IMG/VR virus record: IMGVR_UViG_3300029564_000003 | Location: 69,289 to 133,288 of that record | Strand: one strand, 5' to 3' | Origin: a virus | DNA: 64,000 bases | Shown: one piece after another, positions 15,301-39,186 of the stretch | How positions within the stretch are numbered: the first letter of the stretch is position 1 | Layout: every line of letters begins with the position of its first letter | Notes under the pieces: model-generated | The model's input: only the letters and a program-made list of their open reading frames with translations | What the model was told of the DNA's origin: nothing | Database searches by the model: none | Program-made: the position numbers and the translations under genes

Positions 15301-15642
15301 TTACTCATCGCCATCTGCGCCAGCCTTGAACAATTTCCCGCAATAATGTCGGGTGATGTTCGCCTTGGCTTTAATCTTGGCGATAGTTGTAATTGTCTTG
15401 CCAGTCAAGTTGTTGACCTGCGTCTGCTCTGGGATATACTGCGAGTCAATAGTGATTCCCTCGAACAAACGAATCGATATATCAGACTTCTCATCAGCGC
15501 TAGACAGAGCCTTGAAAATCTCTTCCTCGATTGCGTTGTATACATCCTCGACAACAGACTTCCTGATTCTGGCAGACCGAGCCGCCATCTTTATGATTTG
15601 AGCCTTGGTATAGACGGTCTTCGGCTTATCATTGTTTTCCAT
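15301..15642 (-). CDS. HU/IHF-like histone-like DNA-binding protein
   Basis: 113 aa; N-terminal KAQIIKMAARSARI...VEDVYNAIEEEIFKAL and the beta-arm region match the HU/IHF family pattern. Confidence 0.7.
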   Translation of the reverse strand: MENNDKPKTVYTKAQIIKMAARSARIRKSVVEDVYNAIEEEIFKALSSADEKSDISIRLFEGITIDSQYIPEQTQVNNLTGKTITTIAKIKAKANITRHYCGKLFKAGADGDE

Positions 15643-15827
15643 TCAATCATCCTTTCCGTAAAGACCGACATGAAATCTCGGTTCAAACCTTTATTTCAAT
15701 AGAGGCTTCCATATATTGAGATTTCAAAAATCAACATATGACCTAGATTTCATGTTGTTTGTTCATTTTGGCAAAAGTTGCATATAACCTTAATTATATG
15801 CTGTTTATGTATTTTAGAGGGTAGGGT

Positions 15828-18788: not shown

Positions 18789-19202
18789 TATTTGTTTTTA
18801 TATGTTTTCACTTTGTTTATCAACAAAAAACATTGTTTATAAACAAAAGCATCATAAAAACAAATACATTTTACAATTATAGCATATATATTCGCCAGTT
18901 AAAACCATCATCTATCACATCCATGGAAATAACATCGACATTCAACATGGCTAATAATACACATGCTTAATCGCGCACGTTGATATCCGTATACCCAGTT
19001 ATCAAAGTTTTATACGGTCGTATCTCTTCTTCACGAAATCTACATATAGCAACAACTAAAAGCAGTCACTTTGAAACTCGCGCCAAACTGATGGCGTAGT
19101 CTCGCCTTCGGCTCGCTACGCAGATGGGAGATAATCATACGGCCATTGGTTATAGCATACATCTATTGATTATACGATTGCAACCGTGATATCATCTTCG
19201 TC

Positions 19203-19270
19203 AAAACTTGTCACTTTGATTTCCTCGTTATAATATATATATAACGGTTTTTTCAAAGTGACAAGTTTTG
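19203..19270. repeat. 68-bp perfect palindrome, copy 1 (18-bp arms CAAAACTTGTCACTTTGA, centre CGTTATAATATATATATAACGG)
   Basis: Read directly from the sequence; identical second copy 191 bp downstream. Confidence 0.9.
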
Positions 19271-19393
19271 GAGTTGTATAATTTTGTGTTCATTCCATGA
19301 AGATGTTATATGAGTGTATAAAGTTTTAAGTTGTGGGTATAGAACCAACGACGACCAGAGATGTTTCATCGACGGTCGTTTTTAAGGAAATTT

Positions 19394-19461
19394 AAAACTT
19401 GTCACTTTGATTTCCTCGTTATAATATATATATAACGGTTTTTTCAAAGTGACAAGTTTTG
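19394..19461. repeat. 68-bp perfect palindrome, copy 2
   Basis: Identical to 19203..19270. Confidence 0.9.
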
Positions 19462-19490
19462 CTTGTATAACGATAAGGAGCCTTTGTCTT

Positions 19491-19646
19491 ATGCTGAATA
19501 ACATAAAGAATTATATGCGTTACGCCCTAAGAGATGAAATATCTCATTTTTACAGAGAATCAGTTCCTTACGTAGAATCATCTCTCATCCCCGAGGCGGA
19601 GCGCAGCGGAGACCTCGGCATCAGTTTAGCGCTAATTTCAAAGTGA
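19491..19646 (+). CDS. hypothetical small protein (51 aa)
   Basis: AAGGAG RBS 10 nt upstream of the ATG; lies between the palindromes and the iterons. Confidence 0.25.
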   Translation: MLNNIKNYMRYALRDEISHFYRESVPYVESSLIPEAERSGDLGISLALISK

Positions 19647-19770
19647 CAAGTTTGGCAACTTGAAGTGACAAATTCTTATGAATTTGAAGTGACAAACTTT
19701 TACAAGTTTGAAGTGACAAGTTTAACAACTTAAACAATAAGTTTGGCAACTTAAACAACCAAACACGTAA
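19636..19770. repeat. iteron array: 4-5 direct repeats of GAAGTGACAA(G/A)TT at ~24-bp spacing, plus GTTTGGCAACTT x2
   Basis: Seen in sequence; shares the GTGACAA core with the palindrome arms and with a single site at ~19063. Confidence 0.85.
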
Positions 19771-19788
19771 CGGCTAAGGAATGGTGGT

Positions 19789-20736
19789 ATGGCGAACGAT
19801 ATAGATGTTAGCGGGGTGATTGTGGGAGTCACCTATAAGTACAGAGAACTGTGCAATATCCTTATGGACGAGCCTTGTACTGGTAAACAGAAGATATTAC
19901 AACTAAAGCGTTGGTCTGGCTACATGAGTTGGGAGAACCCGACTACACAGAAGTACAAGATAACAGAAGTGTACGATGAGCCTACGGTTTCATCTAGGGG
20001 TGGTAAGAGGAGAAACAGCGGAAGGAAGAAGAAATTATACGATGAGTTCCTTTGGTTGTTGAACGCATTCATGCACAGGGAGTTCAACAGAAACACCTCT
20101 GGTGGACACGATGGCAAATTGTGTTCTTGCAGATTCACCGGAAACGAGATATCGAAATACTTCGGTCTGTACAACGACAACTTCCATAACGCGGTATCAG
20201 AATACTCGAAGAATCACGATGATGGGGTAGATGAGTTCTCGAAGGCGTGGTATGAGGTGTCGAAGTTGATAGCGGACATGCGCAGGAGATGGATATACAA
20301 CAGGATTGAGGACATCGACGGAGTCAAGTTCGGTTACGGAGTGATAGCGTATAAGGACAAGGATAGGTCTGAATTCGATTATCTTGACGATAAACTCGGC
20401 GATTGGAACTCGTACATGGCGAGATACATGGAGAGGCACAAGTTGAAGAACGAGGGAATGGTCGCAGATAGGGGAATGTATCTGGACATGATTAAGAACA
20501 TATCCCTCAACTTCGATGATTACGTCAGCGTCGAGAGAGTCAGGAGATTCGATTACGACATCGACATCTTGAAGGAGTATGAATTCGATGAGTATGAGGA
20601 TTACAAGAGGAAGTTCAACGATGCCGTGGTTGATGGCTTGAAGAGACACTTCGACAAGAAGGTGAGTTTAGGTGGATATGAGAATGCATACGATGGCTTC
20701 GTCAAAGTCGTCGTCGATGAATACGTGATGTTGTAA
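19789..20736 (+). CDS. hypothetical early protein (first gene of the plus-strand arm)
   Basis: 315 aa; AAGGAATGGTGG RBS; positioned immediately after the iteron array, consistent with a regulator or initiator; no recognisable motif. Confidence 0.5.
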   Translation: MANDIDVSGVIVGVTYKYRELCNILMDEPCTGKQKILQLKRWSGYMSWENPTTQKYKITEVYDEPTVSSRGGKRRNSGRKKKLYDEFLWLLNAFMHREFNRNTSGGHDGKLCSCRFTGNEISKYFGLYNDNFHNAVSEYSKNHDDGVDEFSKAWYEVSKLIADMRRRWIYNRIEDIDGVKFGYGVIAYKDKDRSEFDYLDDKLGDWNSYMARYMERHKLKNEGMVADRGMYLDMIKNISLNFDDYVSVERVRRFDYDIDILKEYEFDEYEDYKRKFNDAVVDGLKRHFDKKVSLGGYENAYDGFVKVVVDEYVML

Positions 20737-20805
20737 ATGATGTTATAAAACGACTATGGTCGTAAGACAGCTATGACAATCAGATAATACAATTGGATAT
20801 TTTTT

Positions 20806-20837
20806 GAGGGCGTCTCTTCGGAGGCGTCCTTTTTTTC
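20806..20837 (+). terminator. rho-independent terminator
   Basis: GGGCGTCTC-UUCG-GAGGCGTCC hairpin (two G-U pairs) followed by TTTTTTT. Confidence 0.6.
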
Positions 20838-21462
20838 GACGTTTTTATAAGCGCCTTTTTTTATTTGCATCTTTAAAAGACAAACAAACTTAAATACAGG
20901 GTTTATAAGCACGTCGTCTATGAAACACCCCTATGGAACGTCGATTTCAGACGGTGTGATTGTGTGACAAAACCGCTGGTAGATAGGCGTTTTTATTACT
21001 TGGTATGGGTGCGGTAATTCGTGTTTCAAGTATGAAGTTTTTATGCAGGGTATGTGTAGGAGTCTTGTTTCCGCTGGTAGACGGCTGATTACAGGGGTAG
21101 GCGAAGGTCTATTTTTGGCTGATTTTCAGTCGATTTTCAAGGCTGTTTTTGAGGTTCTCTCTAGGGCGTTTAGAGGTTCGCAAACGACAAGGGTGTTTTG
21201 GGTTCGGGTGTGATTTTGGGTTGCTGTTTGATGTGTTGCAAACGACAGGGGTGAGGGTGTGGATTTGGTGTTTTGGGTTCGGGATTTTGTGGCGTGTGTG
21301 TGGGGTGTATACGGGTTTGGTTTCAGGTTGTTTTTTGGGTCGGGGTGTGTGGGTGAAGCCCGTGGGGGGGCTGGGGCGATTCCCTAGTCGTTTACTAGGT
21401 TTAAACATGCCCCGTCCGGCACTTCGCGCCGTGCTTGTTCAAAAGTCACCGTGAGCTTTTGG

Positions 21463-21502
21463 GGATGAAAAAACGTGAGGTACCGAACATGTTTTTTCCT
21501 AC
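21463..21502. terminator. bidirectional-looking hairpin AAAAAACGTG...CATGTTTTTT
   Basis: 10-bp stem with A-run 5' and T-run 3'. Confidence 0.35.
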
Positions 21503-22495
21503 TACTTGCATAATAAAACAACCCCCTCTGTATAGTAACGCGCCGCGTTATTATATGAAACCGATTGTTAGTATATATAGTTAGAAGTTTGTCTAACAAT
21601 AGTAACGCAACGCGATACTATGCAACCCAAACCCAAACCCAAACCTTAAACCTATACTTGAACGTTAAACATAACGCCCCAAACACAACGCCTACAATCT
21701 GCCAAACCCAACTAACATATACCCCTCTGAGGGCCTCAGATGCCCCAAAAACGCCCGTTCAGTTTTCCACCTACACTTACCCCCGCCAACTGGTTATCGC
21801 CCCGTATACACGTTTCCGCAGGTAGAACCCTATATTTAGGTACCCGAACTATCGTCACTGGTATGCTGGTACGTACCAGTTGCAACACGATAGCGTACAC
21901 GTGTACGTTAAACGACACTTCGACCCGTTCTGTCGTCGATCTTATCGTGTGCTTATTTTATGTTTTCAACGTTCGACCCCTTGCATATACCTACGCTATC
22001 CGCTATATACGCGTCGCGTATGCAATATGCACGTCTAACGCGTATCCTATGCAGTCGATCGACCGCGTTTACCTGCTATTATACCGTTTACGCGCTATAT
22101 CGCCCTATTCTATGCATATCAACGCGTATACGACACCATTCTATGCAAGTACCTAAACTATGCCGTTTACCTGCGGTTTCACTAAACCATCATATATAGC
22201 ACCACTGTTTACCTGCTGTTTTGTTCAATTAAAATAGTTATTGCAATACATACCGCACCATGCGATATTGGTTTTGCCGCAAGGGGGCACGCCCCGAACG
22301 GCCGCCCGCTACGGGATGCGACCCGCGTAGCGCGTACTTTGAGAACCGAATATCGAGTTTATGAAGACTTTATGAAGACGCTAAAACGGTGCTAACATAG
22401 GGCTTGCCCCACGGGGCGGGAACCTTGATAAGAGCATACGTGGTAGGGCGCGGGGACGGGGACTGAACTGCGCCGCTACCGTGAGCGGCACTTAT

Positions 22496-22522
22496 GTTTC
22501 ACGTGAAACAGTTCACAAACAG
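22496..22522 (+). promoter_or_regulatory. operator-like element: perfect 14-bp palindrome GTTTCACGTGAAAC + AGTTCACAAACAG
   Basis: Seen in sequence; near-identical copy at 22927..22953. Confidence 0.6.
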
Positions 22523-22603
22523 GCGTGAGTACCGTTCACGGTGGGAAGACCGCCATATTCATAGGCCGTAGGGGTGAACCCTACACACACGAAAGGGGTT
22601 ATT

Positions 22604-22873
22604 ATGCCTACCATCAAGTACCACGACGCGTTCGAGCTCACGTCTCACGTGAACGACCTATGCGTGGCGCACGACGTTGCGAGTATGCATAGCGCTATGT
22701 TGTTCGGCGTGAGACTGGGCGGCATGAAAGCGGGAGACGTGTTGAACGTCTACGGTGGTTCTACGCTCACGTCCACGTTCTGTGAGTGCCCTATATTGGG
22801 CGCTGTTAAGTTCCAACTGCGAGTTATCAAGCTGTCAAACGGCAAGGGCTACGCTGTCGAGCGCGTGGCATAG
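22604..22873 (+). CDS. hypothetical protein
   Basis: AAAGGGG RBS then ATG (MPTIKYHDAFEL...). Confidence 0.5.
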   Translation: MPTIKYHDAFELTSHVNDLCVAHDVASMHSAMLFGVRLGGMKAGDVLNVYGGSTLTSTFCECPILGAVKFQLRVIKLSNGKGYAVERVA

Positions 22874-22926
22874 CACAGACCCTGGTAGCCCGTCAAACGG
22901 GCGGGCTACACCTACAATTCGCCAAC

Positions 22927-22953
22927 GTTTCACGTGAAACCATTCACAAACAG
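22927..22953 (+). promoter_or_regulatory. operator-like element GTTTCACGTGAAAC + CATTCACAAACAG (copy 2)
   Basis: Directly upstream of the RBS of the 22966 gene. Confidence 0.6.
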
Positions 22954-22965
22954 AAAGGTATCATT

Positions 22966-23181
22966 ATGTACGTTCCGTATTCTGAGCCGTTCCCCTACGT
23001 CAAGGGTATGCCTACCGTTATCCGCGTGACCGTTCACGAGCTTGACGCGCAAGACCGCCCGAATCGTTCCAAGCAGGTGCGTTATTGGGCGTGCTCTGAC
23101 GGGTTCTACCGCCCTGACGATGATGATATGCGCATCACGGGACTGTCTGTTGATAACGCATACTATTGCGCCAATTGCTAG
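22966..23181 (+). CDS. hypothetical protein (71 aa)
   Basis: GAAAGG RBS; complete ORF. Confidence 0.5.
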   Translation: MYVPYSEPFPYVKGMPTVIRVTVHELDAQDRPNRSKQVRYWACSDGFYRPDDDDMRITGLSVDNAYYCANC

Positions 23182-23282
23182 GCTGTTAATCCAATCCGCC
23201 CACTTGAAAAACAGTGGGCGGGCATGGGCGAACAGTCCAACATACCAACATGGGCAACATGCCCCGACCGAAAGGAACCATC

Positions 23283-23603
23283 ATGCACGTTACCAACATG
23301 AACAGCCCGCGCACGGGTAAGCCCGTGGCCAATCAGTTCATCATCACGGACGGCGGTATTACCGTGTTTCAGTCCTACAATTCTACCATCGCAACCATCG
23401 ACCGAAAGGAACATACTATCACGCTTGGCAAGAATTGGGACTATTCCGTTACAACTGCGAAATACCGCAACTTGTTTTTCGAGGGCGAGGGCTTTAGCCA
23501 CTTGCGGACGACGCAGAAAATCGAATCATATTTGAATTTGGTTGACCGTGGCGGGTACGTCTATGACGATTGGGGCGTTGAGTACTATATCGAGCTTGCA
23601 TAA
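23283..23603 (+). CDS. hypothetical protein (107 aa)
   Basis: GAAAGGAACC RBS before internal ATG of ORF 23214..23603. Confidence 0.5.
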   Translation: MHVTNMNSPRTGKPVANQFIITDGGITVFQSYNSTIATIDRKEHTITLGKNWDYSVTTAKYRNLFFEGEGFSHLRTTQKIESYLNLVDRGGYVYDDWGVEYYIELA

Positions 23604-23647
23604 TTTTTTCAAGCTAACAACGCGCAAAATAATTTTGCGCTAACCAC

Positions 23648-23677
23648 TTGACAACAACATAGACATGGGTTTACAAT
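23648..23677 (+). promoter_or_regulatory. sigma70-like promoter TTGACA-N18-TACAAT preceded by the palindrome GCGCAAAATAATTTTGCGC
   Basis: Hexamers and spacing read from the sequence; about 30 nt upstream of the 23708 gene. Confidence 0.4.
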
Positions 23678-23707
23678 GAACCTGTAAGAAAAACCATGAG
23701 GAAAACC

Positions 23708-24061
23708 ATGCAAACCCCTGATAGTTTCACGATGAATGGCCGCGACGCTCTGCGGAAAGTTCTGCGGAAGTTTACCGTCACGGACGAGGGCGCGGACGGC
23801 ATGGGTACGCTGTCAAATCTTTCCACGGAATTTTCATACAATGACAACCCGTGGTATAGCGTTGTCGTGGATGAAACGCGAGACGAGGAAAATTGCTACG
23901 GAATTTTGTACGTCACCCTGTATTACACAAACCCCGAGTGGGGCGTGTGTATCGCGGCGGAAAATGAATGCCGCTATGACGGTATGCACGAGCGCACGGA
24001 GATTTTGGCGCGTGAGCTTGTTGAGTGCGTCGGAATTATCGAAACTCAACTTATGGAATAA
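23708..24061 (+). CDS. hypothetical protein
   Basis: GAGGA RBS; 118 aa. Confidence 0.5.
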   Translation: MQTPDSFTMNGRDALRKVLRKFTVTDEGADGMGTLSNLSTEFSYNDNPWYSVVVDETRDEENCYGILYVTLYYTNPEWGVCIAAENECRYDGMHERTEILARELVECVGIIETQLME

Positions 24062-24167
24062 ACGGTTGTGCGGAAAATGTGGGGGTGGAAAAACCAAACC
24101 ATCCCCAACCCGCGCGGCATGATACAATAGACCCGACGGAAAAACAATCAGTAGGAAGGCTGGAAAA

Positions 24168-24416
24168 ATGACGCTGAAAGCGTTCACGGAAAAATGGATG
24201 GGACACGCTGATAACGGCTATACCGTCAATCGGTGCTTCTCATTCAAGCCTTGGTTCGGAGAATTTGAGGGGCAGACCGTGTACGTGGCTGCGGAATATT
24301 CCCGTGGCTGGTGGGAGGCGGTTCATGCCGAGACGAAAGACGGAAAATCTTTCGAGATGACGTGTACGAACGGAGAATCTAAATCAGACCTAATCAATAT
24401 GATTATGGGTTGCTAG
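24168..24416 (+). CDS. hypothetical protein (82 aa)
   Basis: Preceded by the conserved leader ACGGAAAAACAATCAGTAGGAAGGCTGGAAAAATG. Confidence 0.5.
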   Translation: MTLKAFTEKWMGHADNGYTVNRCFSFKPWFGEFEGQTVYVAAEYSRGWWEAVHAETKDGKSFEMTCTNGESKSDLINMIMGC

Positions 24417-24452
24417 ATTGCACGGAAAAACAACAGTAGGGAGAACGGAAAA

Positions 24453-24677
24453 ATGTATACTGGTTATCTTATGCCCATCGAGCAGGACATTGTCAACTGG
24501 CGCATGGAAAATCCCATGCTTGACACCATCATCACCATCATCATGTTGCTGCTCACCATCGCCGCAATCGTCTACATGCTGTCGCTCATGCGGAAAAATC
24601 AGCTCATTGAGGAGGAGCGTAGGCGCGAAGAGCGTAGGCGTAAGCGCGCGTGGATTCGCGCCAACGGCGGGCTGTAA
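24453..24677 (+). CDS. small membrane protein (one TM helix, basic C-terminus)
   Basis: Hydrophobic stretch LDTIITIIMLLLTIAAIVYMLSL; the same conserved leader as the 24168 gene. Confidence 0.5.
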   Translation: MYTGYLMPIEQDIVNWRMENPMLDTIITIIMLLLTIAAIVYMLSLMRKNQLIEEERRREERRRKRAWIRANGGL

Positions 24678-24750
24678 TAAAGCCAACGGCGGACTTTAGG
24701 CACGGCGGAAAAACACACACACAAACACACACGAGAGAGGACACGGAAAA

Positions 24751-24942
24751 ATGACTGTTAAAGAGTTCGTGGGCGCTCAGTCCACTCTGGAAAACCCCAT
24801 GAAGTTCAAAATCATCGCGCCCAATGTCAACGGCACTGGGGAAAAACTGACGGTGGAGAACTACGCAACGTTCGCGCCCATGGAAATTTTGATGTGGACT
24901 GCAACACCTGGTGGTAGTTATATCAACCTGTTCGTGGGTTAG
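24751..24942 (+). CDS. hypothetical protein (63 aa)
   Basis: ACGGAAAAATG start context. Confidence 0.45.
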   Translation: MTVKEFVGAQSTLENPMKFKIIAPNVNGTGEKLTVENYATFAPMEILMWTATPGGSYINLFVG

Positions 24943-24951
24943 GCGGAAGAT

Positions 24952-25245
24952 ATGAACAACAAGAAAAAGACTTGGCTTGCAATGATTATCATCGGATATA
25001 TCGTTGTCCTCATGGCGTATGTTATCAATGTTGTCGCGGAAAATCAGTACGCTAGTACTGCGGAAAATAAACCTACCGCCGCTGCGGAAAATACATCCGC
25101 TGTCGCGGAAGATTTGCCTACCGCTATCGAGTGCGGTTCGTGCGGTGCGCATGTGTACGAATACTGGTACTGGGAAAATATCAATGACGGTACGCCTGTA
25201 AAGATATGCCGTTACTGCTATGAGAACTGTATAGAGAATCAGTAG
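24952..25245 (+). CDS. membrane-anchored small protein with AEN repeats and C-terminal Cys cluster
   Basis: N-terminal TM helix; repeated AENxx peptides are encoded by repeated GCGGAAAAT DNA motifs. Confidence 0.45.
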   Translation: MNNKKKTWLAMIIIGYIVVLMAYVINVVAENQYASTAENKPTAAAENTSAVAEDLPTAIECGSCGAHVYEYWYWENINDGTPVKICRYCYENCIENQ

Positions 25246-26040
25246 CGGAGAACACCGCCACGGAGAATTAGTTGCCGATACGCTACCGCTTGCCGCTACG
25301 GAAAATCTCTAGCCCTACGCTGTCGCGTGGGGCTTCTGTGCTGTCGCGTTGGCGCGTGGAACTTTTCGCCATCGCGGAAAAATCGGTATGTTAGTACCAT
25401 CAATTTATAAAGTTAACCAACGGTAACAATGTAGTAGTATCAATATGTTAACCAACTATAACTATTAAGTTAACCATAGTTAACAAATGCACCATGCACC
25501 ACGCGACCCATCGTGCCACGTATCCACGCGCCACACGGAAAATCGGCCCAACGGAAAATTAGACGCGCTACAATCGCGCATCAGACGAGCAACACCACGC
25601 GCCACACAACGCCCTGGAACGCCACGGAATAACGCAAGCCTACCCACACACCCGAGACGCACGCAACGGCGGAAATATAGGCATCACAAGCCGTCACGGA
25701 AGATTGTACGTGCTGGCTCTAGCCGCTCACAGTCCATCGGCCACACGGAAAATCATACTGTGATTCAATTGTGTGGAATGTGTGAACCTATTGCAACCAC
25801 AAGGACAATCATATATATTGTAATCAATCGGTAGTCGAGCCGCTGGAAAATCAGAACATATCCAACGGAGGGGCATGGAAGAACCGTTACACTTTCTCTA
25901 CAGTTGTGCCAATATCTGCGGGTATCTCTACGCTTGTGTACCTACCAACGCTCACACGGAAAATATGTAGACCATGTGAATCTCTATATATATCTTGCGC
26001 CGCCACGGAAAATCAGATAGAGTATAACCACTAGATACAA
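25240..26040 (+). repeat. non-coding array dense in ACGGAAAAT(C)-type motifs (~14 copies / 800 bp)
   Basis: No convincing ORF; motif copies at ~25299, 25375, 25537, 25554, 25669, 25697, 25747, 25844, 25957, 26007 plus variants. Confidence 0.7.
25412..25484. repeat. four GTTAAC(C) palindromic repeats within ~75 bp
   Basis: AGTTAACCAACGGTAACAATG ... TGTTAACCAAC ... AGTTAACCATAGTTAACAAATG. Confidence 0.8.
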
Positions 26041-26062
26041 TCATCAACGGATAGGGTGAGCA

Positions 26063-26329
26063 ATGTATAATCCACTGCACAACGCGCACAACCAATACCA
26101 TCCCGCCATCGACCGCGCGGATAAAATCATGTGCCACTATCGCCGCGTTGGCGGAACTGTTGCAAGGCTTGTCGGAAAATATATCTGCACAGGATACAAC
26201 ATGCCCTGTATCGTCATATACAAGCGCGCTGACGGAAAATGTACCATCAAGAAATATGCCAAGGTACCTAAGTGTTATGCCCAAGCAGTAGCCCAAGCGG
26301 AAAATGATACCTACGAGCCATACTATTAG
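26063..26329 (+). CDS. hypothetical Cys-containing protein (88 aa)
   Basis: AGGGTGAG RBS; three ACGGAAAAT motifs lie inside it in different reading frames. Confidence 0.4.
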   Translation: MYNPLHNAHNQYHPAIDRADKIMCHYRRVGGTVARLVGKYICTGYNMPCIVIYKRADGKCTIKKYAKVPKCYAQAVAQAENDTYEPYY

Positions 26330-26452
26330 GTGGTGGCTTGAGTTGTGTGCATATATGTAGGCTTTGTGAATCTGCAAACAACAGTTGCACGGAAAATCAT
26401 TTGGTGTAATATATAAGTCGTAAGCAAGAGTGCAACCACGAGAGGAAACACC

Positions 26453-26662
26453 ATGCGTGAAATCTGGGTCAACCCCAAGAATCTCCCCAGGTTCATCAAT
26501 CTCAATGACATGATTACTGTGTATGACAACGATGATGATGTGTACGCCACCCTCAAGGTGCATTACAGCGGAATCTTTGAGAGCGGCGGGCTAGAGGGGG
26601 CTGAGTGGTTCATTGCCACGAACATTGATACGGGTGAAATCGTGCGTATCGTGATTGAGTAG
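26453..26662 (+). CDS. hypothetical protein (69 aa)
   Basis: GAGAGGAAACACC RBS. Confidence 0.5.
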   Translation: MREIWVNPKNLPRFINLNDMITVYDNDDDVYATLKVHYSGIFESGGLEGAEWFIATNIDTGEIVRIVIE

Positions 26663-26670
26663 AGGGCGCG

Positions 26671-26699
26671 GGTAGGTGAGAGCCTACCCTCTTTTTTTA
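26671..26699 (+). terminator. rho-independent terminator
   Basis: GGGTAGG-TGAGAG-CCTACCC + TCTTTTTTT. Confidence 0.65.
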
Positions 26700-26712
26700 T
26701 AGACGGAATAAA

Positions 26713-26773
26713 GTTAGCTTACGCTAACAATATAAGTTAGCTTTAGCTAACAATAAGTTAGTTAAAGCTAACA
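26713..26773. promoter_or_regulatory. three tandem 16-bp palindromic operator-like sites: GTTAGCTTACGCTAAC / GTTAGCTTTAGCTAAC / GTTAGTTAAAGCTAAC
   Basis: Seen in sequence at 26713-28, 26736-51, 26758-73; each is followed by AATA. Confidence 0.7.
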
Positions 26774-27257
26774 ATAAAATGCTACCAACGAATAACCAAT
26801 TTAATGAACACATTATGAAGATTCAATGAATACACAGGCAACACTTGACAACCACAACGCAATCAGGTTGTCAAGCAATCCGACACGGAAAAATCTAATT
26901 ATGTATTTATGCACAGTTCTCTACACAACTCAACCCAAACAACAAAACCGCAGGTAAACATAGCCGTTAGAATCGCGTGTATGGGAATATACATAACATA
27001 TGCCTATACTGTCTAGGATATGCAAACATCGCCCCAAATAGGCACATCACAGAGACGTACAAGACCATGCGATTGCGGAAGATTCGGACGATATGCACAG
27101 ACAACGAGCCAAACAACAACCATATGTGTAGCAATTGTGATGAAAAACATATACATAGTTTTCATCTTGACACACAGCGACAAAACCACATACAATATAG
27201 CCAACGCAACCAACAAAGGTTGCTAACGCAACCAACCGATAAGAGAGGACATACACC

Positions 27258-27572
27258 ATGCGTGAGTACACCGTAAGCGTTTACGCCATGAAGCACGATG
27301 ATTTGTTCGGCGGGTTTGAGACCGACTACATGAGCAGCCCAATCATTGAGCATAGGTACCCCGACAAGCAGCAAGCCGCCTATGATTTCGCCTTGCTCAA
27401 GGAGTTCCCGCGTGAGTTGTACCACACTGCCAAGGCGTGCGGAGGTAAGCCCGTGGGGTACGTTGCATTTCTTGAGTGTGTGCAAGACGAAGATATCTGC
27501 GGGTATCTTGACGTTGAGACTATCGATAGCACATCGTACACCACGGATGATTACATGCTTGAGCATAACTAG
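27258..27572 (+). CDS. hypothetical protein (104 aa)
   Basis: GAGAGGACATACACC RBS. Confidence 0.5.
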   Translation: MREYTVSVYAMKHDDLFGGFETDYMSSPIIEHRYPDKQQAAYDFALLKEFPRELYHTAKACGGKPVGYVAFLECVQDEDICGYLDVETIDSTSYTTDDYMLEHN

Positions 27573-27581
27573 CAGCAATCA

Positions 27582-27610
27582 GCCTGCCTATATGGTGGGC
27601 TTTTTCTTGC
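27582..27610 (+). terminator. probable rho-independent terminator
   Basis: GCCTGCC/GGTGGGC stem (with G-U pairs) + TTTTTC. Confidence 0.35.
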
Positions 27611-27715
27611 AGCTATAGTTATGAAGATTATATGAATATACAAACCACACTAGACACAAGCGTTATCAGTGTTAATATATAGACACGTTAAGCCACGACC
27701 GAAAGGACGCACACC

Positions 27716-27946
27716 ATGGACAACGTTACCACGCTTTATGTTTCAGAGGAAAATGAGTACGGCGAGATTCAAGACTATGAGATTGCAGTCGATACCGATT
27801 GGCTCAAAAATGAAATCATCGAGGATTTCGGTTTCAGCACTATCGAGGAGTTTATGGACGAGTACACCAGTGATGAATCATCGGAGGTTTATTGTATTGC
27901 TTCTATCACTGGACACCTTGCGAAGATTTTGCCCCCGTTGATTTAA
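27716..27946 (+). CDS. hypothetical acidic protein (76 aa)
   Basis: GAAAGGACGCACACC RBS. Confidence 0.5.
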   Translation: MDNVTTLYVSEENEYGEIQDYEIAVDTDWLKNEIIEDFGFSTIEEFMDEYTSDESSEVYCIASITGHLAKILPPLI

Positions 27947-27990
27947 GATGCATAACGGATTAAGAGTTTATCTCACAGAGAGGAATAATA

Positions 27991-28251
27991 ATGCAGTATT
28001 ACGCCATTGAGTACACCGAGACGCGCACGGCAACCTTCAATGTTCAGGCTGATAGTTATGAGGACGCTTGCGAGCGTTTCGCTAACATGCTTAACAACGA
28101 TGATATCATTTACAATGTACTTGACAATACGGACTTTGTGAACACGGATACTAATTGTCTTGGAAGCATTGGCGACGAGCCAGATGATTGTTGCGATGAC
28201 ACGATTACCGATGATGATTACAAGATGGCTATTGGTATCAAGGAGGATTAA
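27991..28251 (+). CDS. hypothetical acidic protein, paralog A1 (TNCxGxIGD family)
   Basis: Paralogous to 31418..31669 (shared ADSxEEAxER...NTDTNC.G.IGD...DYK.IG pattern). Confidence 0.55.
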   Translation: MQYYAIEYTETRTATFNVQADSYEDACERFANMLNNDDIIYNVLDNTDFVNTDTNCLGSIGDEPDDCCDDTITDDDYKMAIGIKED

Positions 28252-28253
28252 CC

Positions 28254-28493
28254 GTGTGCAAGTGGGCCGTGGTTTGCGTTTGCGCCTACGATAATCAGGT
28301 TTCGAGTGTTGACTTGTTCGATAGTTATGAGGACGCTTCTAAGTTCATGGAAAGCGACGCGGCGGAATCATACGAGGAAATGAAGGAGCACAACGCTAAT
28401 ATTTATATGGAGAATTGCGGGCAATGCGCTGAAATTGTTATCAATGGAAGTACCGATTATTTCTGGAGTATCGAGCCTACTAATATCCATTAA
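28254..28493 (+). CDS. hypothetical protein, paralog B1 (WAVVC...AEIVING family)
   Basis: Paralogous to 31996..32253. Confidence 0.55.
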   Translation: MCKWAVVCVCAYDNQVSSVDLFDSYEDASKFMESDAAESYEEMKEHNANIYMENCGQCAEIVINGSTDYFWSIEPTNIH

Positions 28494-28500
28494 AAGTAAT

Positions 28501-28533
28501 GAGAATGGGCGCGTATAACACGCGCCCTATTTT
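28501..28533 (+). terminator. rho-independent terminator
   Basis: GGGCGCGT-ATAAC-ACGCGCCC + TATTTTT. Confidence 0.7.
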
Positions 28534-28602
28534 TCTTGTCTCATAAAGTTATGAAGAAGTTATGAACTTAACAATCACACTAGACACAACACGGCACAGT
28601 GC

Positions 28603-28690
28603 TATTATATAGTTAATCGGTAGTCGCAGGTTGGCAATACCAACCCAAGGGGCAGATAAGAGCCGTGATTTATTGAGCTACAGTTGTGCG
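28603..28690 (+). repeat. ~90-bp conserved intergenic element, copy 1 (TATTATATAGTTAATCGGTAG...GAGCCGTGATTTAT..AGCTACAGTT)
   Basis: Near-identical copy at 35102..35180; partial copy ~25826..25900. Confidence 0.75.
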
Positions 28691-29038
28691 TATTTGTAAA
28701 ACACATGCACAACATCGAACTAGTGTTCTATCTGACTACATAAGCATAAGCCAATGAGAGCCGATTTAAGGCGTTGTATTTCCGATACTGGACACTTACA
28801 CCACACACGCCACGAACGCCCGAAATATCGCAACGTAAAGCGTTTTAGTACGTTAATCCTGGTATCAGTACGGCATTGATAGAGCGCATATATACGCGAT
28901 TGGCGCAATGGTTCTAAAGATTGGGATATGTGTTGAAGTTGTGAAGATGAAATATCCCGATGAGCAACGCCAAGACATGCGATATAGTGTAGTCACGCCG
29001 AGCGGATAGGGCGCGGCACGATTGAAAAGAGGATATTA

Positions 29039-29206
29039 TGTGGAGCAACTTCGATGACGATGATTTCATCATCATTTTCAGCAACGGCGAGTATCTTTAC
29101 GAGGGTCTTGTAAAGGACATGCCCGAGAATTTCAAGCATGATTCATACGATTGGTACGCGCTTGGAAGGACGGAGCGTGCCGATTACCTGTTGATTGAGT
29201 TCTAAC
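29039..29206 (+). CDS. hypothetical protein (55 aa)
   Basis: AAGAGGA RBS; followed by a terminator. Confidence 0.4.
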
Positions 29207-29250
29207 CACGAGAGGGCGCGGGATACTTAGGTACCCGCGCTTTTCTTTTG
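29207..29250 (+). terminator. rho-independent terminator
   Basis: GCGCGGG(A)TAC...GTACCCGCGC + TTTTCTTTT. Confidence 0.6.
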
Positions 29251-29325
29251 TGTATTATTATGTAGATTATATGAATGATAATGATGTGTGGTATAGTGTA
29301 TTCAACGTTATTAGAAAGGATTGAC

Positions 29326-29592
29326 ATGCACGATACGAAGCTCACCTTTGATAACTGCACGTTGTTCGATTGCTGGAACCAGCCGCATATGCTCATTCCC
29401 ATTGACATGTTCGGAATCCCAATCTACCCAGATGATGTGGTGTATGACGAGTGCGACCGCGATAAGACCAAGCCTATTAAGGTCATGGCAATTCGCACAT
29501 ATGATGACGAGGATGATACGCAGCAACATATCATCGACTATGAGGGCAATTGGCATTATGGAGACGAGTGTTTTCATGAATGGTATTGCTAA
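29326..29592 (+). CDS. hypothetical protein (88 aa)
   Basis: GAAAGGATTGAC RBS before internal ATG. Confidence 0.45.
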   Translation: MHDTKLTFDNCTLFDCWNQPHMLIPIDMFGIPIYPDDVVYDECDRDKTKPIKVMAIRTYDDEDDTQQHIIDYEGNWHYGDECFHEWYC

Positions 29593-29594
29593 AT

Positions 29595-29630
29595 ATGGCG
29601 CGGGTGCAAAGGCATCCGCGCTTTTCTTTA
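29595..29630 (+). terminator. rho-independent terminator
   Basis: GCGCGGGTGC...GCATCCGCGC + TTTTCTTT. Confidence 0.6.
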
Positions 29631-29712
29631 CAAAAACAATTGTGAAGAAAACATGAATACGCTTGATGTGTGATATAGTATAGACGTGTTGAGCCAAGAG
29701 AAAGGAAGCGAC

Positions 29713-30177
29713 ATGCTTTACGAGTTCAGCGGTAACATCCCCCAAGAAATGCGCTATTGGTCTAACGGGTGTGCCGATTTGTCGGGCGATATTTGCGAGT
29801 ACGATTTGCCAATGGAGCTTAGGCGCGTACTTGATGACCTGTGGACTGACGCATATGTTACGCGCTGCTACCTATTCGAGTTCAAAGGTCGATACGGCGT
29901 TGCGATTGAAGCCGAATACGAAGCGGATTATGCGCGTGATTTGGGAATCTCACCCGACACGCTGGAAGATTACGCGCATAGCATCGCAAGAGCAACAGCC
30001 GATAGGTACGGCAAGTACGATGTTATGTTCTGTAATCAATTAAACATATGGGGCGGTAATGCAAACTATAACGACAGTCTTGTGACCGTGTTCATGCCAT
30101 GGAATATCGACAAGAATGAATTTACGGCGGTTGCAAGGTGGTTCGATGATAATTGTTACCTGAGCATCGACATATAA
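29713..30177 (+). CDS. hypothetical protein (154 aa)
   Basis: GAGAAAGGAAGCGAC RBS. Confidence 0.5.
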   Translation: MLYEFSGNIPQEMRYWSNGCADLSGDICEYDLPMELRRVLDDLWTDAYVTRCYLFEFKGRYGVAIEAEYEADYARDLGISPDTLEDYAHSIARATADRYGKYDVMFCNQLNIWGGNANYNDSLVTVFMPWNIDKNEFTAVARWFDDNCYLSIDI

Positions 30178-30292
30178 ATATGTAGAGATTGTGAAGCCAT
30201 ATATTCTCAATGACACGATGGTTGTTTTGCTGTATATTATAGACAACGAAAAGGCGCGTATGACACGCGAGAACCGACCGAGAGGAATCGAC

Positions 30293-30856
30293 ATGTTCAC
30301 CAAGAAGCAGCTCACGGCAATCAAGCGCATTGCAGCCAAGGGCACCAAGGCGGAGAGCCGTACCACGCATTGCACCACGCTTGCCTGTGGCGGCGATAAG
30401 CTGGCAGCTGTCAACAATTACGCTGTGGTGCTGTTCGGCTATGACGCTTTTGACGATGGCGATATGGACGCGATTAAGGCAGACCCCGCCTATTTCTACA
30501 ATGAGAAGATAGGCGAAACCATGAGGGTCGAACGCCTGTTCGCAAACTTTGACGATTACATGGCGAATGGCGATAACGAATGGTATTGCGACACACTATG
30601 TGAATTTCTTACACCTGGTGATGTTGACAGGCTGTGCAATGATGCTACGAGTGTATTCGGTTGCGCAAAGCCCTGTATCGTTCGTGAGTTCGGAAACGAG
30701 CCGCGCAACAACGTTACGAGGTTTGCTGTCAACGCCAAGTATTTCAGGGACGCTTGCCATGCTGTTGGCGGCAACGTGTTCGTGAACTGGTCTATGAACG
30801 GCATTGTTGTTGATGGTTATCAAAGCAAGGCAATCGTCATGCCTGTTCGCCTGTAA
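30293..30856 (+). CDS. hypothetical protein (187 aa)
   Basis: GAGAGGAATCGAC RBS before internal ATG of ORF 30191..30856. Confidence 0.5.
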   Translation: MFTKKQLTAIKRIAAKGTKAESRTTHCTTLACGGDKLAAVNNYAVVLFGYDAFDDGDMDAIKADPAYFYNEKIGETMRVERLFANFDDYMANGDNEWYCDTLCEFLTPGDVDRLCNDATSVFGCAKPCIVREFGNEPRNNVTRFAVNAKYFRDACHAVGGNVFVNWSMNGIVVDGYQSKAIVMPVRL

Positions 30857-30959
30857 GGCAATTATGTAGACGGTGTGGAGACGTAGAATCCCAAACACCA
30901 CACCGTCTCACCGTGGTATAGTGTAACCACAGAGAGACAAACCAACCCGAAAGGAATCA

Positions 30960-31154
30960 ATGATGGATACCAAGGCCGCAGCAACCAAGGCTCATAGGCT
31001 CATTGCAGACATTACCGCAGCGCTTGACATGGCATATGAAGCGCAGTATGACGTGATGGACGAGGAATCTATCGAGATTTTCGAGCGCATCGAGCGCAAG
31101 CTGAACGGCGCGCACGACAACGCGCATGAGCTGTTCGATATGCTTAGTGAGTAG
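30960..31154 (+). CDS. hypothetical helical protein (64 aa)
   Basis: GAAAGGAATCA RBS. Confidence 0.45.
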   Translation: MMDTKAAATKAHRLIADITAALDMAYEAQYDVMDEESIEIFERIERKLNGAHDNAHELFDMLSE

Positions 31155-31164
31155 GAGGTTTGAC

Positions 31165-31371
31165 ATGGAGTGCGTCATTATCGAAGCCGAGCGCACGGGA
31201 TACGCGCCCGAGCAGTGCGGTGAGACGATGACCGTTGGCGAGCTGGTCGAGCTGGTCGAGTCGCTGTCTGGTTATGACGATGACGTTCCCGTGTACCTGT
31301 CACACGACAACGGATACACATACGGCAGCATCAATGAGTGCAACATCAGCCGTATGACCGTCGCTGTTTAA
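31165..31371 (+). CDS. hypothetical protein (68 aa)
   Basis: GTAGGAGGTTTGAC RBS. Confidence 0.5.
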   Translation: MECVIIEAERTGYAPEQCGETMTVGELVELVESLSGYDDDVPVYLSHDNGYTYGSINECNISRMTVAV

Positions 31372-31417
31372 GATTAAACCAAGCATCCACACAACGAGGT
31401 TTCTTAAGGAGTTTACC

Positions 31418-31669
31418 ATGGCTTACTTTGCTTTTGAGATTACAGAGCTTAAAGTGGTGACACTGGCAATCGAAGCAGACAGTGACGAAGAAGCATATGA
31501 GAGACTGTTGGATATTGATAGCTCGAGTGATGTTCTAGTTGACGCAATCGCCGCCGCGCATCCGTTCGATAACAACACCAATTGCTTTGGAGAGATATTA
31601 GGAGACGTGATTGGAAATGTGATAATTTCAGACGGCGATTATAAGCGCATCATAGGCGAGTATTATTAG
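31418..31669 (+). CDS. hypothetical acidic protein, paralog A2
   Basis: Paralog of 27991..28251. Confidence 0.55.
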   Translation: MAYFAFEITELKVVTLAIEADSDEEAYERLLDIDSSSDVLVDAIAAAHPFDNNTNCFGEILGDVIGNVIISDGDYKRIIGEYY

Positions 31670-31690
31670 GTAATCAGGTAGGTAACGGAT

Positions 31691-31948
31691 ATGGACACTG
31701 GAAACGAGCATACGCACCATGCGGAGCATGAGTACCCGCAACTCACAGGGCACACCGATGATACCACTCTTGCTTTCATCGACACATCCGACACCTACGG
31801 GTTGCCGATGGGCATGGTTCTCAAGCTGTGGACGTGTATGGGCAGACCGCGCAACATCGACACGGTAAGGCAAGAGGTCGAACGTCTGTTCGATGAGTTC
31901 GGGACGGAAGAATTGCTGTACGGCCTTGCTTTGTCATGGCTGGACTGA
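31691..31948 (+). CDS. hypothetical His-rich protein (85 aa)
   Basis: GGTAGGTAACGGAT RBS-like; N-terminal HTHHAEHE. Confidence 0.45.
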   Translation: MDTGNEHTHHAEHEYPQLTGHTDDTTLAFIDTSDTYGLPMGMVLKLWTCMGRPRNIDTVRQEVERLFDEFGTEELLYGLALSWLD

Positions 31949-31995
31949 CGGAAAAATAATCGACAATCTTGTGGAAAATCTGTGGAGGTATTGAC

Positions 31996-32253
31996 ATGTG
32001 GGCTGTTGTGTGTATGGGCATTTACGATTACACGATTTTAAGCGTCAACCTATTTGACGATTTCGACAAGGCAACGCGGTTCGTTCGCAACGATGTGGAA
32101 GAAAGCTACCGTGAAATGAGTGAATGTAACGACAATATCAGTATTGAAGCAGATTATTCGGCTGGGTATGCGGAAATCGTTATCAACGGAGAGGTTAAAT
32201 ATATTTGGGGTACCGACTTTGTTGGTGATGTGTGTGTGGATTGTGAAGATTAG
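31996..32253 (+). CDS. hypothetical protein, paralog B2
   Basis: TGGAGGTATTGAC RBS; paralog of 28254..28493. Confidence 0.55.
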   Translation: MWAVVCMGIYDYTILSVNLFDDFDKATRFVRNDVEESYREMSECNDNISIEADYSAGYAEIVINGEVKYIWGTDFVGDVCVDCED

Positions 32254-32348
32254 CAAGGTCGGAAAATCTCACGCTCCATGGTCGGAAAATCTGATATAGT
32301 ATAACCAACGAGAAGCAACAGGACGCCGAGCGGAAGTAGGTTGTTACC

Positions 32349-32642
32349 ATGCGATACTACGCTTTTCACCACACTTACGGAATCAACACCGCCGACACGC
32401 GCGGAAATATCATCGGTAGGCTGTATGTTTTCGACACAAGGCAGGATGCCGCACGTTGGGTTTCCGAAGATGTGTGGGACGGAAATTATCACCGCTCGAC
32501 TATCAGCTCAAAAGACGCGCGTAAGTACCTGGAAGATATGTGGTTTGATTTCGGATTGCGCAATAAAGCGGACGCAAGGTATATGAGCATGGGCAGTCTT
32601 GTGGATAGATACACGGATTGGGCGCGTGAGGAATATATGTAG
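32349..32642 (+). CDS. hypothetical protein (97 aa)
   Basis: Complete ORF with ATG start; Trp/Tyr-rich. Confidence 0.45.
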   Translation: MRYYAFHHTYGINTADTRGNIIGRLYVFDTRQDAARWVSEDVWDGNYHRSTISSKDARKYLEDMWFDFGLRNKADARYMSMGSLVDRYTDWAREEYM

Positions 32643-32733
32643 GAACTGTGAATCGGAATATTCCCGATACAAACACAGTCTAGTTTTGATATAGTATAAC
32701 CAAGGTAAAGGAGCCGAGAGGAAGGCGCTGACA

Positions 32734-37317: not shown

Positions 37318-37533
37318 ATGTCGAGCATCAAAAGCGAGATTGGAAAGGTCGATAGAACACCGTTCAACACGACGATAAGAACCGACCTATTGAATGACTT
37401 CAAACGATACTCAAAGGACACTGGCGTTCCTATGAACGTGCTTGTAGAGCTATTCATGGCTGGTGTCGTAGACGGAAAATTCGATATCGCCATAGTCAAA
37501 GGCGGGGTTCATCTGGATTTTCAGGAAGAATGA
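37318..37533 (+). CDS. putative ribbon-helix-helix (CopG/Arc-like) regulator
   Basis: N-terminal beta-strand segment RTPFNTTIRTDLL followed by two predicted helices; 71 aa. Confidence 0.4.
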   Translation: MSSIKSEIGKVDRTPFNTTIRTDLLNDFKRYSKDTGVPMNVLVELFMAGVVDGKFDIAIVKGGVHLDFQEE

Positions 37534-37596
37534 CAACTGTGTTGATTTCGTGTAGCCCAAAATGACTGTATAAAACATGTGATATATGGGTATGAG

Positions 37597-37788
37597 ATGC
37601 ACGTTGCGGAAAATCTGAACGAAGGGATTACCATGTACGAGGACGATGTTAAGGACGAGTTGCGGAAAATCGCGGAAAGCATGGTCGATGCGTCCGATGG
37701 CCTGACGGTTGCCGATGCGATGGATGCGATTCGTTATTATCTCGATGTGATTCTCAATGACATTCAGCGAGAGTTGGAGGACAAGTAA
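37597..37788 (+). CDS. hypothetical acidic protein
   Basis: Internal start of ORF 37579..37788; an alternative ATG at 37633 has a better RBS. Confidence 0.4.
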   Translation: MHVAENLNEGITMYEDDVKDELRKIAESMVDASDGLTVADAMDAIRYYLDVILNDIQRELEDK

Positions 37789-38039
37789 TGCCAAGGTGCG
37801 CACATGAGCGCGTGTGTACCGAGTACATGCGCCGCTACGGAAAAATCCTATCGAAGCATTGCCCGAATCCGAGTCGATGCCCGTTCTATCAGAAGGAGAA
37901 CACCGTGACAATCAAGGAGTTCATGGATGATTTCATGGACGGCATGGCGGATGCGTTCTGTGTCAATGACAACGGCGTTACCAAGGTGAAGCGCAAGACC
38001 GTTCCCAGGGACATGGTCGATGATTGCTACGGTGTGTGA
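37788..38039 (+). CDS. hypothetical Cys-rich protein (83 aa)
   Basis: CxxxC...CPxxxRC pattern. Confidence 0.45.
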   Translation: MPRCAHERVCTEYMRRYGKILSKHCPNPSRCPFYQKENTVTIKEFMDDFMDGMADAFCVNDNGVTKVKRKTVPRDMVDDCYGV

Positions 38040-38434
38040 TTGATGTGGAGACATTTGACTGGGACGATGGATTCTATTGTGAATACGATGTAAACCAAGA
38101 GGGGCGATTTGAATCTTCGTTCAATGATAAGCTCTTCGCGACGCTGTTCACGACACTGGTCGTAGCTACATTGCTGTTCGTTATCGTCAGTCTTGGACTG
38201 TCTAGCTGTGCGGACAAACATGAAGCGCAGGAAGCGACAAATGATACGGAACTTGCAACCATTTATGATACGGCAAAAGAAGATGATGGTTTCTTGTATG
38301 AAGGTCGCGGACTGTGTTCTGAGTGCGGCAGGGAGGGCTACACGATTGACGATAACATCGTGTGCCGTAACGAGGATTGCCCTAATTACGGCCTTGCAGC
38401 ACCAGCAATCATGACGGGGACGGAAAATCAATAG
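38024..38434 (+). CDS. membrane/lipoprotein-like protein with C-terminal zinc ribbon
   Basis: TM segment FATLFTTLVVATLLFVIVSLGLSSC (lipobox-like LSSC); CSECG...CRNEDC; start codon uncertain (TTG/GTG). Confidence 0.35.
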   Translation: MLRCVIDVETFDWDDGFYCEYDVNQEGRFESSFNDKLFATLFTTLVVATLLFVIVSLGLSSCADKHEAQEATNDTELATIYDTAKEDDGFLYEGRGLCSECGREGYTIDDNIVCRNEDCPNYGLAAPAIMTGTENQ

Positions 38435-38457
38435 ACGATTCTGATTGAGAGGTTCAC

Positions 38458-38952: not shown

Positions 38953-39009
38953 TATTTAGCAACATACATATAGTTACGATAACTAGACGGAAAATCTAAG
39001 GAGTTACAA

Positions 39010-39183: not shown

Positions 39184-39186
39184 GGT

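Follow-up and report, generated by a model that had tools for sequence, protein, structure and literature searches.

Tandem dyad arrays in an SPbeta-like gut phage as candidate operators for a host metal-responsive repressor

The DNA considered here is a stretch of 64,000 nucleotides, referred to as the window, from a virus (positions 69,289 to 133,288 of the IMG/VR record IMGVR_UViG_3300029564_000003). Its early region carries two sets of short, phased dyad repeats, array C (26711-26776) and array B (25410..25488), which are the subject of this analysis. The window belongs to an uncultured SPbeta-like phage of gut Firmicutes (gut Clostridia). The minus strand of positions 1-18788 includes genes for a portal protein, the large terminase and a 986-aa YonO-like protein (15828-18788), which matches PHROG 8308 (E=6e-231) and Pfam RdRP and shares 40-44% identity with the YonO region in SPbeta-like and Clostridium phages. 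YonO is related to the multisubunit polymerases. It is a single-peptide RNA polymerase that transcribes the late genes of SPbeta (PMC5467207). The YonO-like polymerase defines a family of 115-150-kb contigs from gut, rumen and Clostridia, made up of 49 IMG/VR loci and 13 loci from metagenome-assembled genomes (MAGs) or genomes; MAG contigs of gut and rumen Clostridia are among the relatives, and one relative lies inside a 482-kb Faecalicatena contig. Nucleotide searches of INPHARED for close relatives among annotated phages returned nothing. From 19789 on, the window has small plus-strand genes with strong Shine-Dalgarno sequences, and further downstream are genes for a tyrosine-recombinase-family protein, a YopX-domain protein, nucleotide metabolism and replication.

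Array C consists of three AAGTTAG-N6-CTAACAAT sites, which read directly as AAGTTAGCTTACGCTAACAATAT, AAGTTAGCTTTAGCTAACAAT and AAGTTAGTTAAAGCTAACAATAA. Site 1 (AAGTTAGCTTACGCTAACAATA, 26711..26732) has its 16-bp core at 26713-26728. Site 2 (AAGTTAGCTTTAGCTAACAATA, 26734..26755, core 26736-26751) starts 23 bp beyond site 1, and site 3 (AAGTTAGTTAAAGCTAACAATA, 26755..26776, core 26757-26772) starts 21 bp beyond site 2; the dyads are given without a strand, as are array B, the inverted repeat and the non-coding stretch described below. The initial annotation had described three tandem palindromes of the form GTTAGC-N4-GCTAAC right after a terminator. Both features were found, the third palindrome having one arm mismatch (GTTAGT). 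Array C goes far beyond chance. With up to two mismatches, GTTAGC-N4-GCTAAC has seven matches in the window against 1.64 expected, a number that was reached in 0 of 100 shuffles, and the array is the sole triple of identical-arm palindromes in the 64 kb, with none in 20 block shuffles. The looser pattern GTTA-N8-TAACAA has six matches against 0.13 expected, of which five lie within arrays C and B.

The GTTAAC(C) repeats that the initial annotation had placed at 25412-25484 proved to be three related sites of the same motif family. These form array B, with TTAA-N6-TTAA sites AAGTTAACCAACGGTAACAATG (25410), ATGTTAACCAACTATAACTATT (25445) and AAGTTAACCATAGTTAACAAAT (25467). The sites are spaced 35 and 22 bp apart, have the form AAGTTAACC...TAACAA and account for three of the seven GTTAGC-N4-GCTAAC matches. 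Sites 2 and 3 overlap a promoter-like match on the minus strand (TTAACT-17-TATAGT, 25483..25455, 9/12 match). By the GTTA-N8-TAACAA scan, the motif is confined to these two loci within the 64 kb, and the regions 3' of arrays B and C have no homology outside the arrays themselves. A further recurrence of the GCTAACAA half-site had been proposed near 23600-23680. The sequences are indeed present (AGCTAACAA at 23612-23620 and GCTAAC at 23639-23644), but as half-sites that stand alone, directly oriented on either side of a hairpin and lacking a partner arm at N6, they do not make full sites. With at most one mismatch, AGCTAACAA is weakly enriched in the window (22 matches against 13 expected).

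The intrinsic terminator ahead of array C (26670..26698, plus strand) belongs to the upstream gene 26453-26662. Its 8-bp stem (26670-26689), which is followed by a T run, fits the consensus and is kept in nine lineages, and array C begins 12 nt past the T run. On the other side, 27 nt past the array, are three 11-bp-phased ATGAA(C/G/T)A repeats (26804..26832, plus strand), an element associated with early promoters. These are followed by an inverted repeat, CTTGACAACC-N12-GGTTGTCAAG (26844..26875), which has 10-bp arms and is nearly invariant in relatives. The inverted repeat contains a -35-like TTGACA (26845-26850), 68 nt past array C, at the usual distance from the ATGAA repeats and without a -10. 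Array C is free of overlapping sigma-70-type promoters on both strands, and none was found on the plus strand over array B. Past these elements, the first gene preceded by a ribosome-binding site begins at 27258 and is served by a promoter of its own (27167-27196). The flanking open reading frames (26453-26662, 27258-27572, 25487-25834 and 26063-26329) gave no match to a DNA-binding family and are small acidic ORFans. A minus-strand reading frame over array C (26724-26813, a 29-aa hydrophobic peptide) was rejected as a gene, having no ribosome-binding site and being broken by stop codons in the two-copy relatives.

Conservation of the arrays was assessed on 15 Logan contigs collected through homologues of the 27258-27572 gene (61-93% identity), and nine distinct lineages were compared. 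The intergenic region is about 590 bp long in all nine and 87-98% identical to the window. A motif search in related phages had been suggested by the initial annotation; in each of the nine lineages array C stands at the same position, with the same terminator before it and the same sequence after it, in two or three copies. Three copies are present in the window, L070-73 and L079/80, and two in L066-69 and L074-78, where site 1 is the one that is missing. Array B varies from two to four copies in the relatives and is absent from the L066 group; the distance between arrays B and C in relatives is 1.24-1.64 kb. The 49 IMG/VR relatives of the YonO type could not be used for footprinting, because they lack nearly all of the early genes tested, including all of those next to the arrays. 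Two of the distant YonO-phage relatives (L039 and L047) have TAGTTAACCAT(A/G)G(C/T)TAACTT in the early region.

Sixteen distinct sites were obtained in this way. Little or no variation is seen at positions A1 A2 (G3) T4 T5 A6 and T15 A16 A17 C18 A19 A20. The inner arm pairs complement each other in just 10 of the 16 sites, and the central 4 nt are free to vary. Site 2 of array B keeps just a 4-bp stem, and site 3 of array C is mostly GTTAAC-TAAC-GTTAAC in the relatives, a symmetric double change. The motif can thus be written as (A/T)(A/T)GTTA-N8-TAAC(A/T)(A/T), most commonly as GTTAG-N6-CTAAC or GTTAA-N6-TTAAC. Since the outer contacts are fixed, the centre is free and in some sites no more than a 4-bp A/T stem is left, the pattern suggests a dimeric protein on DNA rather than a hairpin or terminator. 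This agrees with the proposal of the initial annotation that the phased dyads are probable sites for a dimeric DNA-binding protein. Compared with published sequences, all 16 sites have TTA(G/A)...(C/T)TAA half-sites at 6-nt spacing, as in operators of the DtxR/MntR family.

The sequence beyond array C is itself conserved. Between 26800 and 27160 (about 360 bp), 70-95% of the columns are invariant per 40-bp bin across four lineages, most bins reaching 85-95%, and in most bins the stretch beats the flanking genes in conservation. A coding function was rejected, as substitutions fall equally in all three codon phases and there is no conserved reading frame with a ribosome-binding site. No Rfam family matched the stretch. 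There is too little variation to judge RNA structure, wobble-compatible changes being slightly more numerous on the minus strand. A convergent promoter-like site on the minus strand (27015..26986) lies inside it. The stretch may encode one or two small RNAs.

The early units of the window follow a common layout: a terminator, RTGWAGA-N4-RTGAAT direct repeats, about 12 nt, a -35, 16-17 nt and a -10. The repeat (a 7-bp pair with an 11-bp period, similar to a PhoB box) has 12 matches against 0.56 expected, all of them along local transcription. The 12 sites fall within 19030-32652 (e.g., 22361, 25965, 26355, 27621, 28551, 29260, 29642, 30180 and 32637) and lie mostly about 12 nt 5' of the -35; two copies replace the -35, and the minus-strand copy (19045-19030) is upstream of the YonO-like gene. 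The element is also found in relatives L008, L009, L010, L039 and L040. It may be the binding site of a conserved activator or an UP-like element. Two other short words were noticed in these regions. The first, ACGGAAAA, occurs 25 times against 2.25 expected, 23 times on the plus strand, within 24136-26892 and 37472-39982; it clusters in early intergenic regions and 5' leaders and is frequent in relative L010 too. The second, TTTACCTGCGGTTTTGT(T/C)GTTT, has three plus-strand copies at 22067-22225 and is found on the minus strand at 26941-26960, as well as in the early regions of L004 and L007.

The same motif was then sought outside this phage. A first IMG/VR pattern, GTTAGC-N4-GCTAACAA plus the next half-site, returned single chance palindromes and nothing else. 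A tandem pattern with 23 fixed bases, AAGTTA-N8-TAACAAT-N0-2-AAGTTA-N8-TAAC, was searched in IMG/VR and in metagenome contigs. In IMG/VR it found one phage lineage (L081-84), which has no detectable protein in common with the window. In this lineage the motif pair again stands past a terminator, between convergent genes of the replication module. In the metagenome contigs the pattern was found on 15 contigs in seven contexts. In three of these (L087/93, L090/95 and L091), the pair is located 48-59 nt upstream of feoA without phage nearby. In a fourth (L099), it lies within a gene cluster of feoB and FeoB-associated HMA, and in a fifth (L085/86/88/94/97) 19 nt separate it from a downstream Trep_Strep ECF S-component, which is followed by ECF transporter genes. 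The remaining two are the unrelated phage lineage (L081-84) again and L092, which has no assigned locus. In the promoter of L087/93 (TTGACA-17-TATACT), the first unit extends across the spacer and the -10 and the second unit lies over the start region, which is a textbook repressor arrangement. Positions G7 and C14, which the pattern leaves free, hold these bases in 9 of 12 sites in six non-phage contexts, and the spacing is 21-23 bp. The inner 8 nt are non-palindromic in the unrelated phage and in several bacterial sites.

Of the readings considered, the likeliest, to which we give an even chance, is that arrays B and C are double-stranded DNA operators at which a metal-responsive repressor of the host binds, probably a member of the DtxR/MntR family (DtxR/IdeR/MntR); the tandem sites of bacterial feo promoters are their closest match. 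The sites, their phasing and conservation, and the identity of their motif with the feo-linked tandem sites are observations; the identity of the binder, its dependence on metal and the consequence for the phage are what we infer from geometry and context. Each 20-bp unit, (A/T)(A/T)GTTA(G/A)-N6-(C/T)TAAC(A/T)(A/T), would be the site of a single helix-turn-helix regulator dimer. A repeat of 21-23 bp is close to two helical turns, so that neighbouring dimers would share one face of the helix and could bind cooperatively. The regulator would be a host protein that also controls ferrous-iron uptake (feo) and is active with Fe2+ or Mn2+ bound. A host rather than a phage-specific regulator is suggested because the exact tandem motif stands upstream of bacterial feoA with no phage nearby, and a regulator of ferrous-iron or metal uptake because the bacterial contexts are feoA, feoB and ECF.

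Two consequences for the phage can be envisaged under a host repressor. It could exert metal-dependent control over the adjacent conserved non-coding unit from upstream, possibly with looping between arrays B and C. Alternatively, the arrays could soak up the repressor as the phage DNA replicates. In this phage and in the unrelated one the arrays lie past terminators and away from promoters, which fits looping control or titration. That the arrays act as decoys, with 5-6 high-affinity sites per genome copy titrating the host metal-dependent repressor and thereby switching on ferrous-iron uptake, is in our estimate improbable. The extra iron would feed iron-dependent functions of the phage. Among the products encoded in the window are a NifS-like cysteine desulfurase and a glycyl-radical protein; the tie between these genes and iron supply is speculation.

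Several observations weigh against a host metalloregulator. The tandem pattern was built from the phage sites, so agreement at its fixed positions is circular. Tandem GTTAG-N6-CTAAC is found in 82 IMG/VR stretches of many GC contents, compared with two for the composition-matched GATTG-N6-CAATC. The pairs (IMG/VR loci L100-L179) are separated by 5-7 bp. Many belong to one large family with a GC content of about 0.55 (L119, L147), which has two to four copies of GTTAGTGGTCACTAAC with a 23-bp period adjoining a gene similar to the terminase small subunit, and in the low-GC L108 the array is directly upstream of terS. Proteins besides metalloregulators clearly use GTTAG arms. Because GTTAG arrays serve more than one kind of protein, the link to metal rests on the extended motif and the feo contexts. 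These contexts come from metagenome contigs. In addition, about 480-580 nt separate the phage arrays from the next credible start codon, and promoters are not overlapped, unlike at the bacterial sites. No binding protein was found for the arrays, and no DtxR/MntR homologue was found in the window or the fetched loci by Pfam scans or, for the homologue search, by tblastn. A literature search returned no paper describing the motif.

The main rival is a phage-encoded regulator that binds arrays B and C cooperatively and shuts off or times early transcription. This is possible, though we hold it to be rather doubtful. Three dyads at 21-23 bp resemble the OR/OL architecture of lambda, and relatives whose YonO is 44-69% identical have short tandem arrays of a different, individual kind in the early region, such as the 3x and 4x palindromes of L010. 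The MrpR repressor of SPbeta provides a precedent (PMC10516654), the window encodes a Phage_integrase-family protein, and its 64 kb cover only part of a genome of about 130 kb, so that the gene could lie outside it. However, the exact motif and phasing recur at bacterial feoA, feoB and ECF loci and in an unrelated phage, no regulator gene adjoins either array, and the arrays overlap no promoter. Nor do the candidates within the window fare well. The initial annotation had proposed a ribbon-helix-helix (RHH) protein encoded at 37318-37533, the product of which does look ribbon-helix-helix by eye. Its match to Pfam RHH_3 (E=0.003, 17.8 bits) is below the 21.6-bit cutoff, and the gene is 10.5 kb from the array. 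An autoregulated operator was not found either, as there is no GTTA-N8-TAAC in the promoter region upstream of this gene (read from 36800) and none was found there in the window-wide scans. The other suggested regulator, the product of gene 19789, has no Pfam, PHROG or PDB match, and different repeats stand upstream of its gene. Nothing connects either product to the array. The idea of one regulator family acting at several early promoters also found no support: no plus-strand sigma-70-type promoter lies under either array, and the early promoters carry a different upstream element. A 264-aa tyrosine-recombinase-like protein (40338-41132) could play an MrpR-like role, but it has no PDB sequence match and so no match to MrpR.

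A further candidate binder, the DUF8033 protein (23283-23603), was set aside. Repeats of the GTTAACAA type occur upstream of its homologues in L009 and L031, but the protein has no DNA-binding signature and the arrays are not adjacent to its gene.

Much less can be said for origin iterons of the lambda type, in which the repeats would bind a phage initiator next to the AT-rich stretch 26777-26840 and the inverted repeat 26844-26875. The copy number of 2-4 across relatives, the AT-rich stretch and 10-bp inverted repeat 3' of array C and the conservation of the entire non-coding region would suit such a role, which we nevertheless regard as very unlikely. The motif also precedes bacterial feoA genes, the two arrays lie 1.2-1.6 kb from each other and no initiator-like gene separates or adjoins them, and the replication genes are 28-33 kb off. 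A DnaA-box cluster was looked for and none was found, the AT-rich stretch is made up of ATGAA repeats of the kind found at ordinary early promoters, and the repeat region at 18789-19788 is more origin-like. Least credible of all are RNA elements, either three transcript hairpins that would serve in processing or stability or as protein-binding sites, or weak tandem terminators of a leftward transcript from 27015..26986: the palindromes fold, trivially, two of them are picked up by a terminator scan of the minus strand (6 pairs including 3 GC) and site 3 shows one symmetric double change (GTTAGT/GCTAAC to GTTAAC/GTTAAC), but complementarity of the two loop-closing pairs is limited to 10 of 16 distinct sites, some sites have just a 4-bp A/U-rich stem, the inner 8 nt are non-palindromic in the unrelated phage and several bacterial sites, the unpaired flanks (AA ... 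AAT) are more conserved than the stem, and array C comes just past an efficient-looking terminator on the plus strand.

Some other features of the window and its relatives were recorded. The region 18789-19788, between the YonO-like gene and gene 19789, contains a 191-bp direct repeat with 68 nt identical at 19203-19270 and 19394-19461, and each copy is a long palindrome with an AT-only centre. It also contains four GAAGTGACAAGTTT repeats and three AAGTT-N4-AACTT palindromes, two of which are 21 bp apart. The region looks like an origin or a master control region. In L046 a tandem array (24 bp, 2.7 copies) stands upstream of the homologue of gene 19789. Phage-specific short tandem arrays are frequent in the early region of the IMG/VR relatives of the YonO type: L010 has 3x and 4x CAACACGCAAGTGTTG-type palindromes at 3850-7360, one set being directly 5' of a ribosome-binding site; L031 has more than nine copies of AATCGTTAACAAC with a 30-bp period at 5863-6132; L032 has a 21-bp unit repeated 5.2 times at 7261-7370; and L003 has its own dense phage-specific short tandem array at 4516-4815. 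The genes of the window include those for a class-V aminotransferase (NifS/IscS-like, 49435-50619), a small glycyl-radical-domain protein (61550-61801), a LAGLIDADG endonuclease in the packaging region (11542-12267) and an HNH/NUMOD4 endonuclease near tRNA genes (46602-47138).

If a host metal-sensing repressor does bind the arrays, a large uncultured family of gut Clostridia phages would read or manipulate the iron status of its host. To our knowledge, the sole classic precedents are toxin genes, those of corynephage beta and of the Shiga-toxin phages. Sites with neither a cargo gene nor promoter overlap lead to the testable idea that replicating phage DNA titrates the repressor. If the decoy role were true, it might be a widespread phage strategy, tandem GTTAG-N6-CTAAC being about 40 times as frequent as the control in viral contigs. 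The bacterial sites offer a candidate feoA/feoB operator for uncultured Firmicutes, AAGTTAG-N6-CTAAC(A/T)(A/T) in tandem at 21-23 bp, of which the searchable literature yielded no description. If a phage protein binds instead, this would be an ordinary operator array.

Several known systems resemble the arrays in part. Like OR1-3 and OL1-3 of lambda, array C has three phased dyads at a spacing of about 23 bp, with a second array 1.2-1.6 kb off and looping possible. Unlike in lambda, divergent promoters overlapping the sites are missing, as are neighbouring repressor and cro genes, and the motif is common to bacterial loci instead of being immunity-specific. Another comparison is with SPbeta, the master repressor of which, MrpR (YopR), is built on a recombinase fold and recognizes a 15-bp element (SPBRE) repeated at about 10 promoters (PMC10516654). 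Both phages have a YonO-type RNA polymerase, a YopX-domain protein and a recombinase-fold protein. However, the 15-bp SPBRE motif occurs singly, in about 10 promoter regions, whereas the present phage has tandem 20-bp dyads at two promoter-free loci.

Another likeness is to the clostridial Rex box, TTGTTAA-N4-TTAACAA (PMC9600882). Its half-site (GTTAA / TTAACAA) is almost the same as that of the arrays, but the Rex spacing is 2 bp shorter (N4 versus N6). Rex was rejected, as the canonical pattern has five matches against 3.9 expected in the window and none in the arrays, and the bacterial contexts concern iron uptake, not redox.

The operators of DtxR-family proteins agree with the arrays in half-site geometry. 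PsaR and SloR, which, with ScaR, are streptococcal Mn/Fe regulators, bind an 8-nt inverted repeat with a 6-nt spacer, AAAATTAA-CTTGAC-TTAATTTT, and the ScaR operator has a second inverted repeat in tandem (PMC3688865). The A/T flanks and the N6 are like those of array B (AAGTTAA-N6-TTAACAA, i.e., TTAA-N6-TTAA). The phage sites differ in having G instead of A at arm position 3, in their asymmetric flanks (AA ... AA) and in lying on a phage genome. The DtxR consensus, TTAGGTTAGCCTAACCTAA (PMC7762939), can be read as two TTAG-N6-CTAA units offset and overlapping by 5 bp, and array C has this TTAG-N6-CTAA geometry. The 5-bp overlap fits two dimers on opposite faces of the DNA, whereas the phage arrays consist of separate units 21-23 bp apart, two to four per array. 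The tox operator on corynephage beta is a dyad site on phage DNA to which a host metal-dependent helix-turn-helix repressor binds, and it overlaps the tox promoter. In contrast, the phage arrays described here overlap no promoter and precede no cargo gene; in bacteria, both kinds of site are tied to iron-uptake genes.

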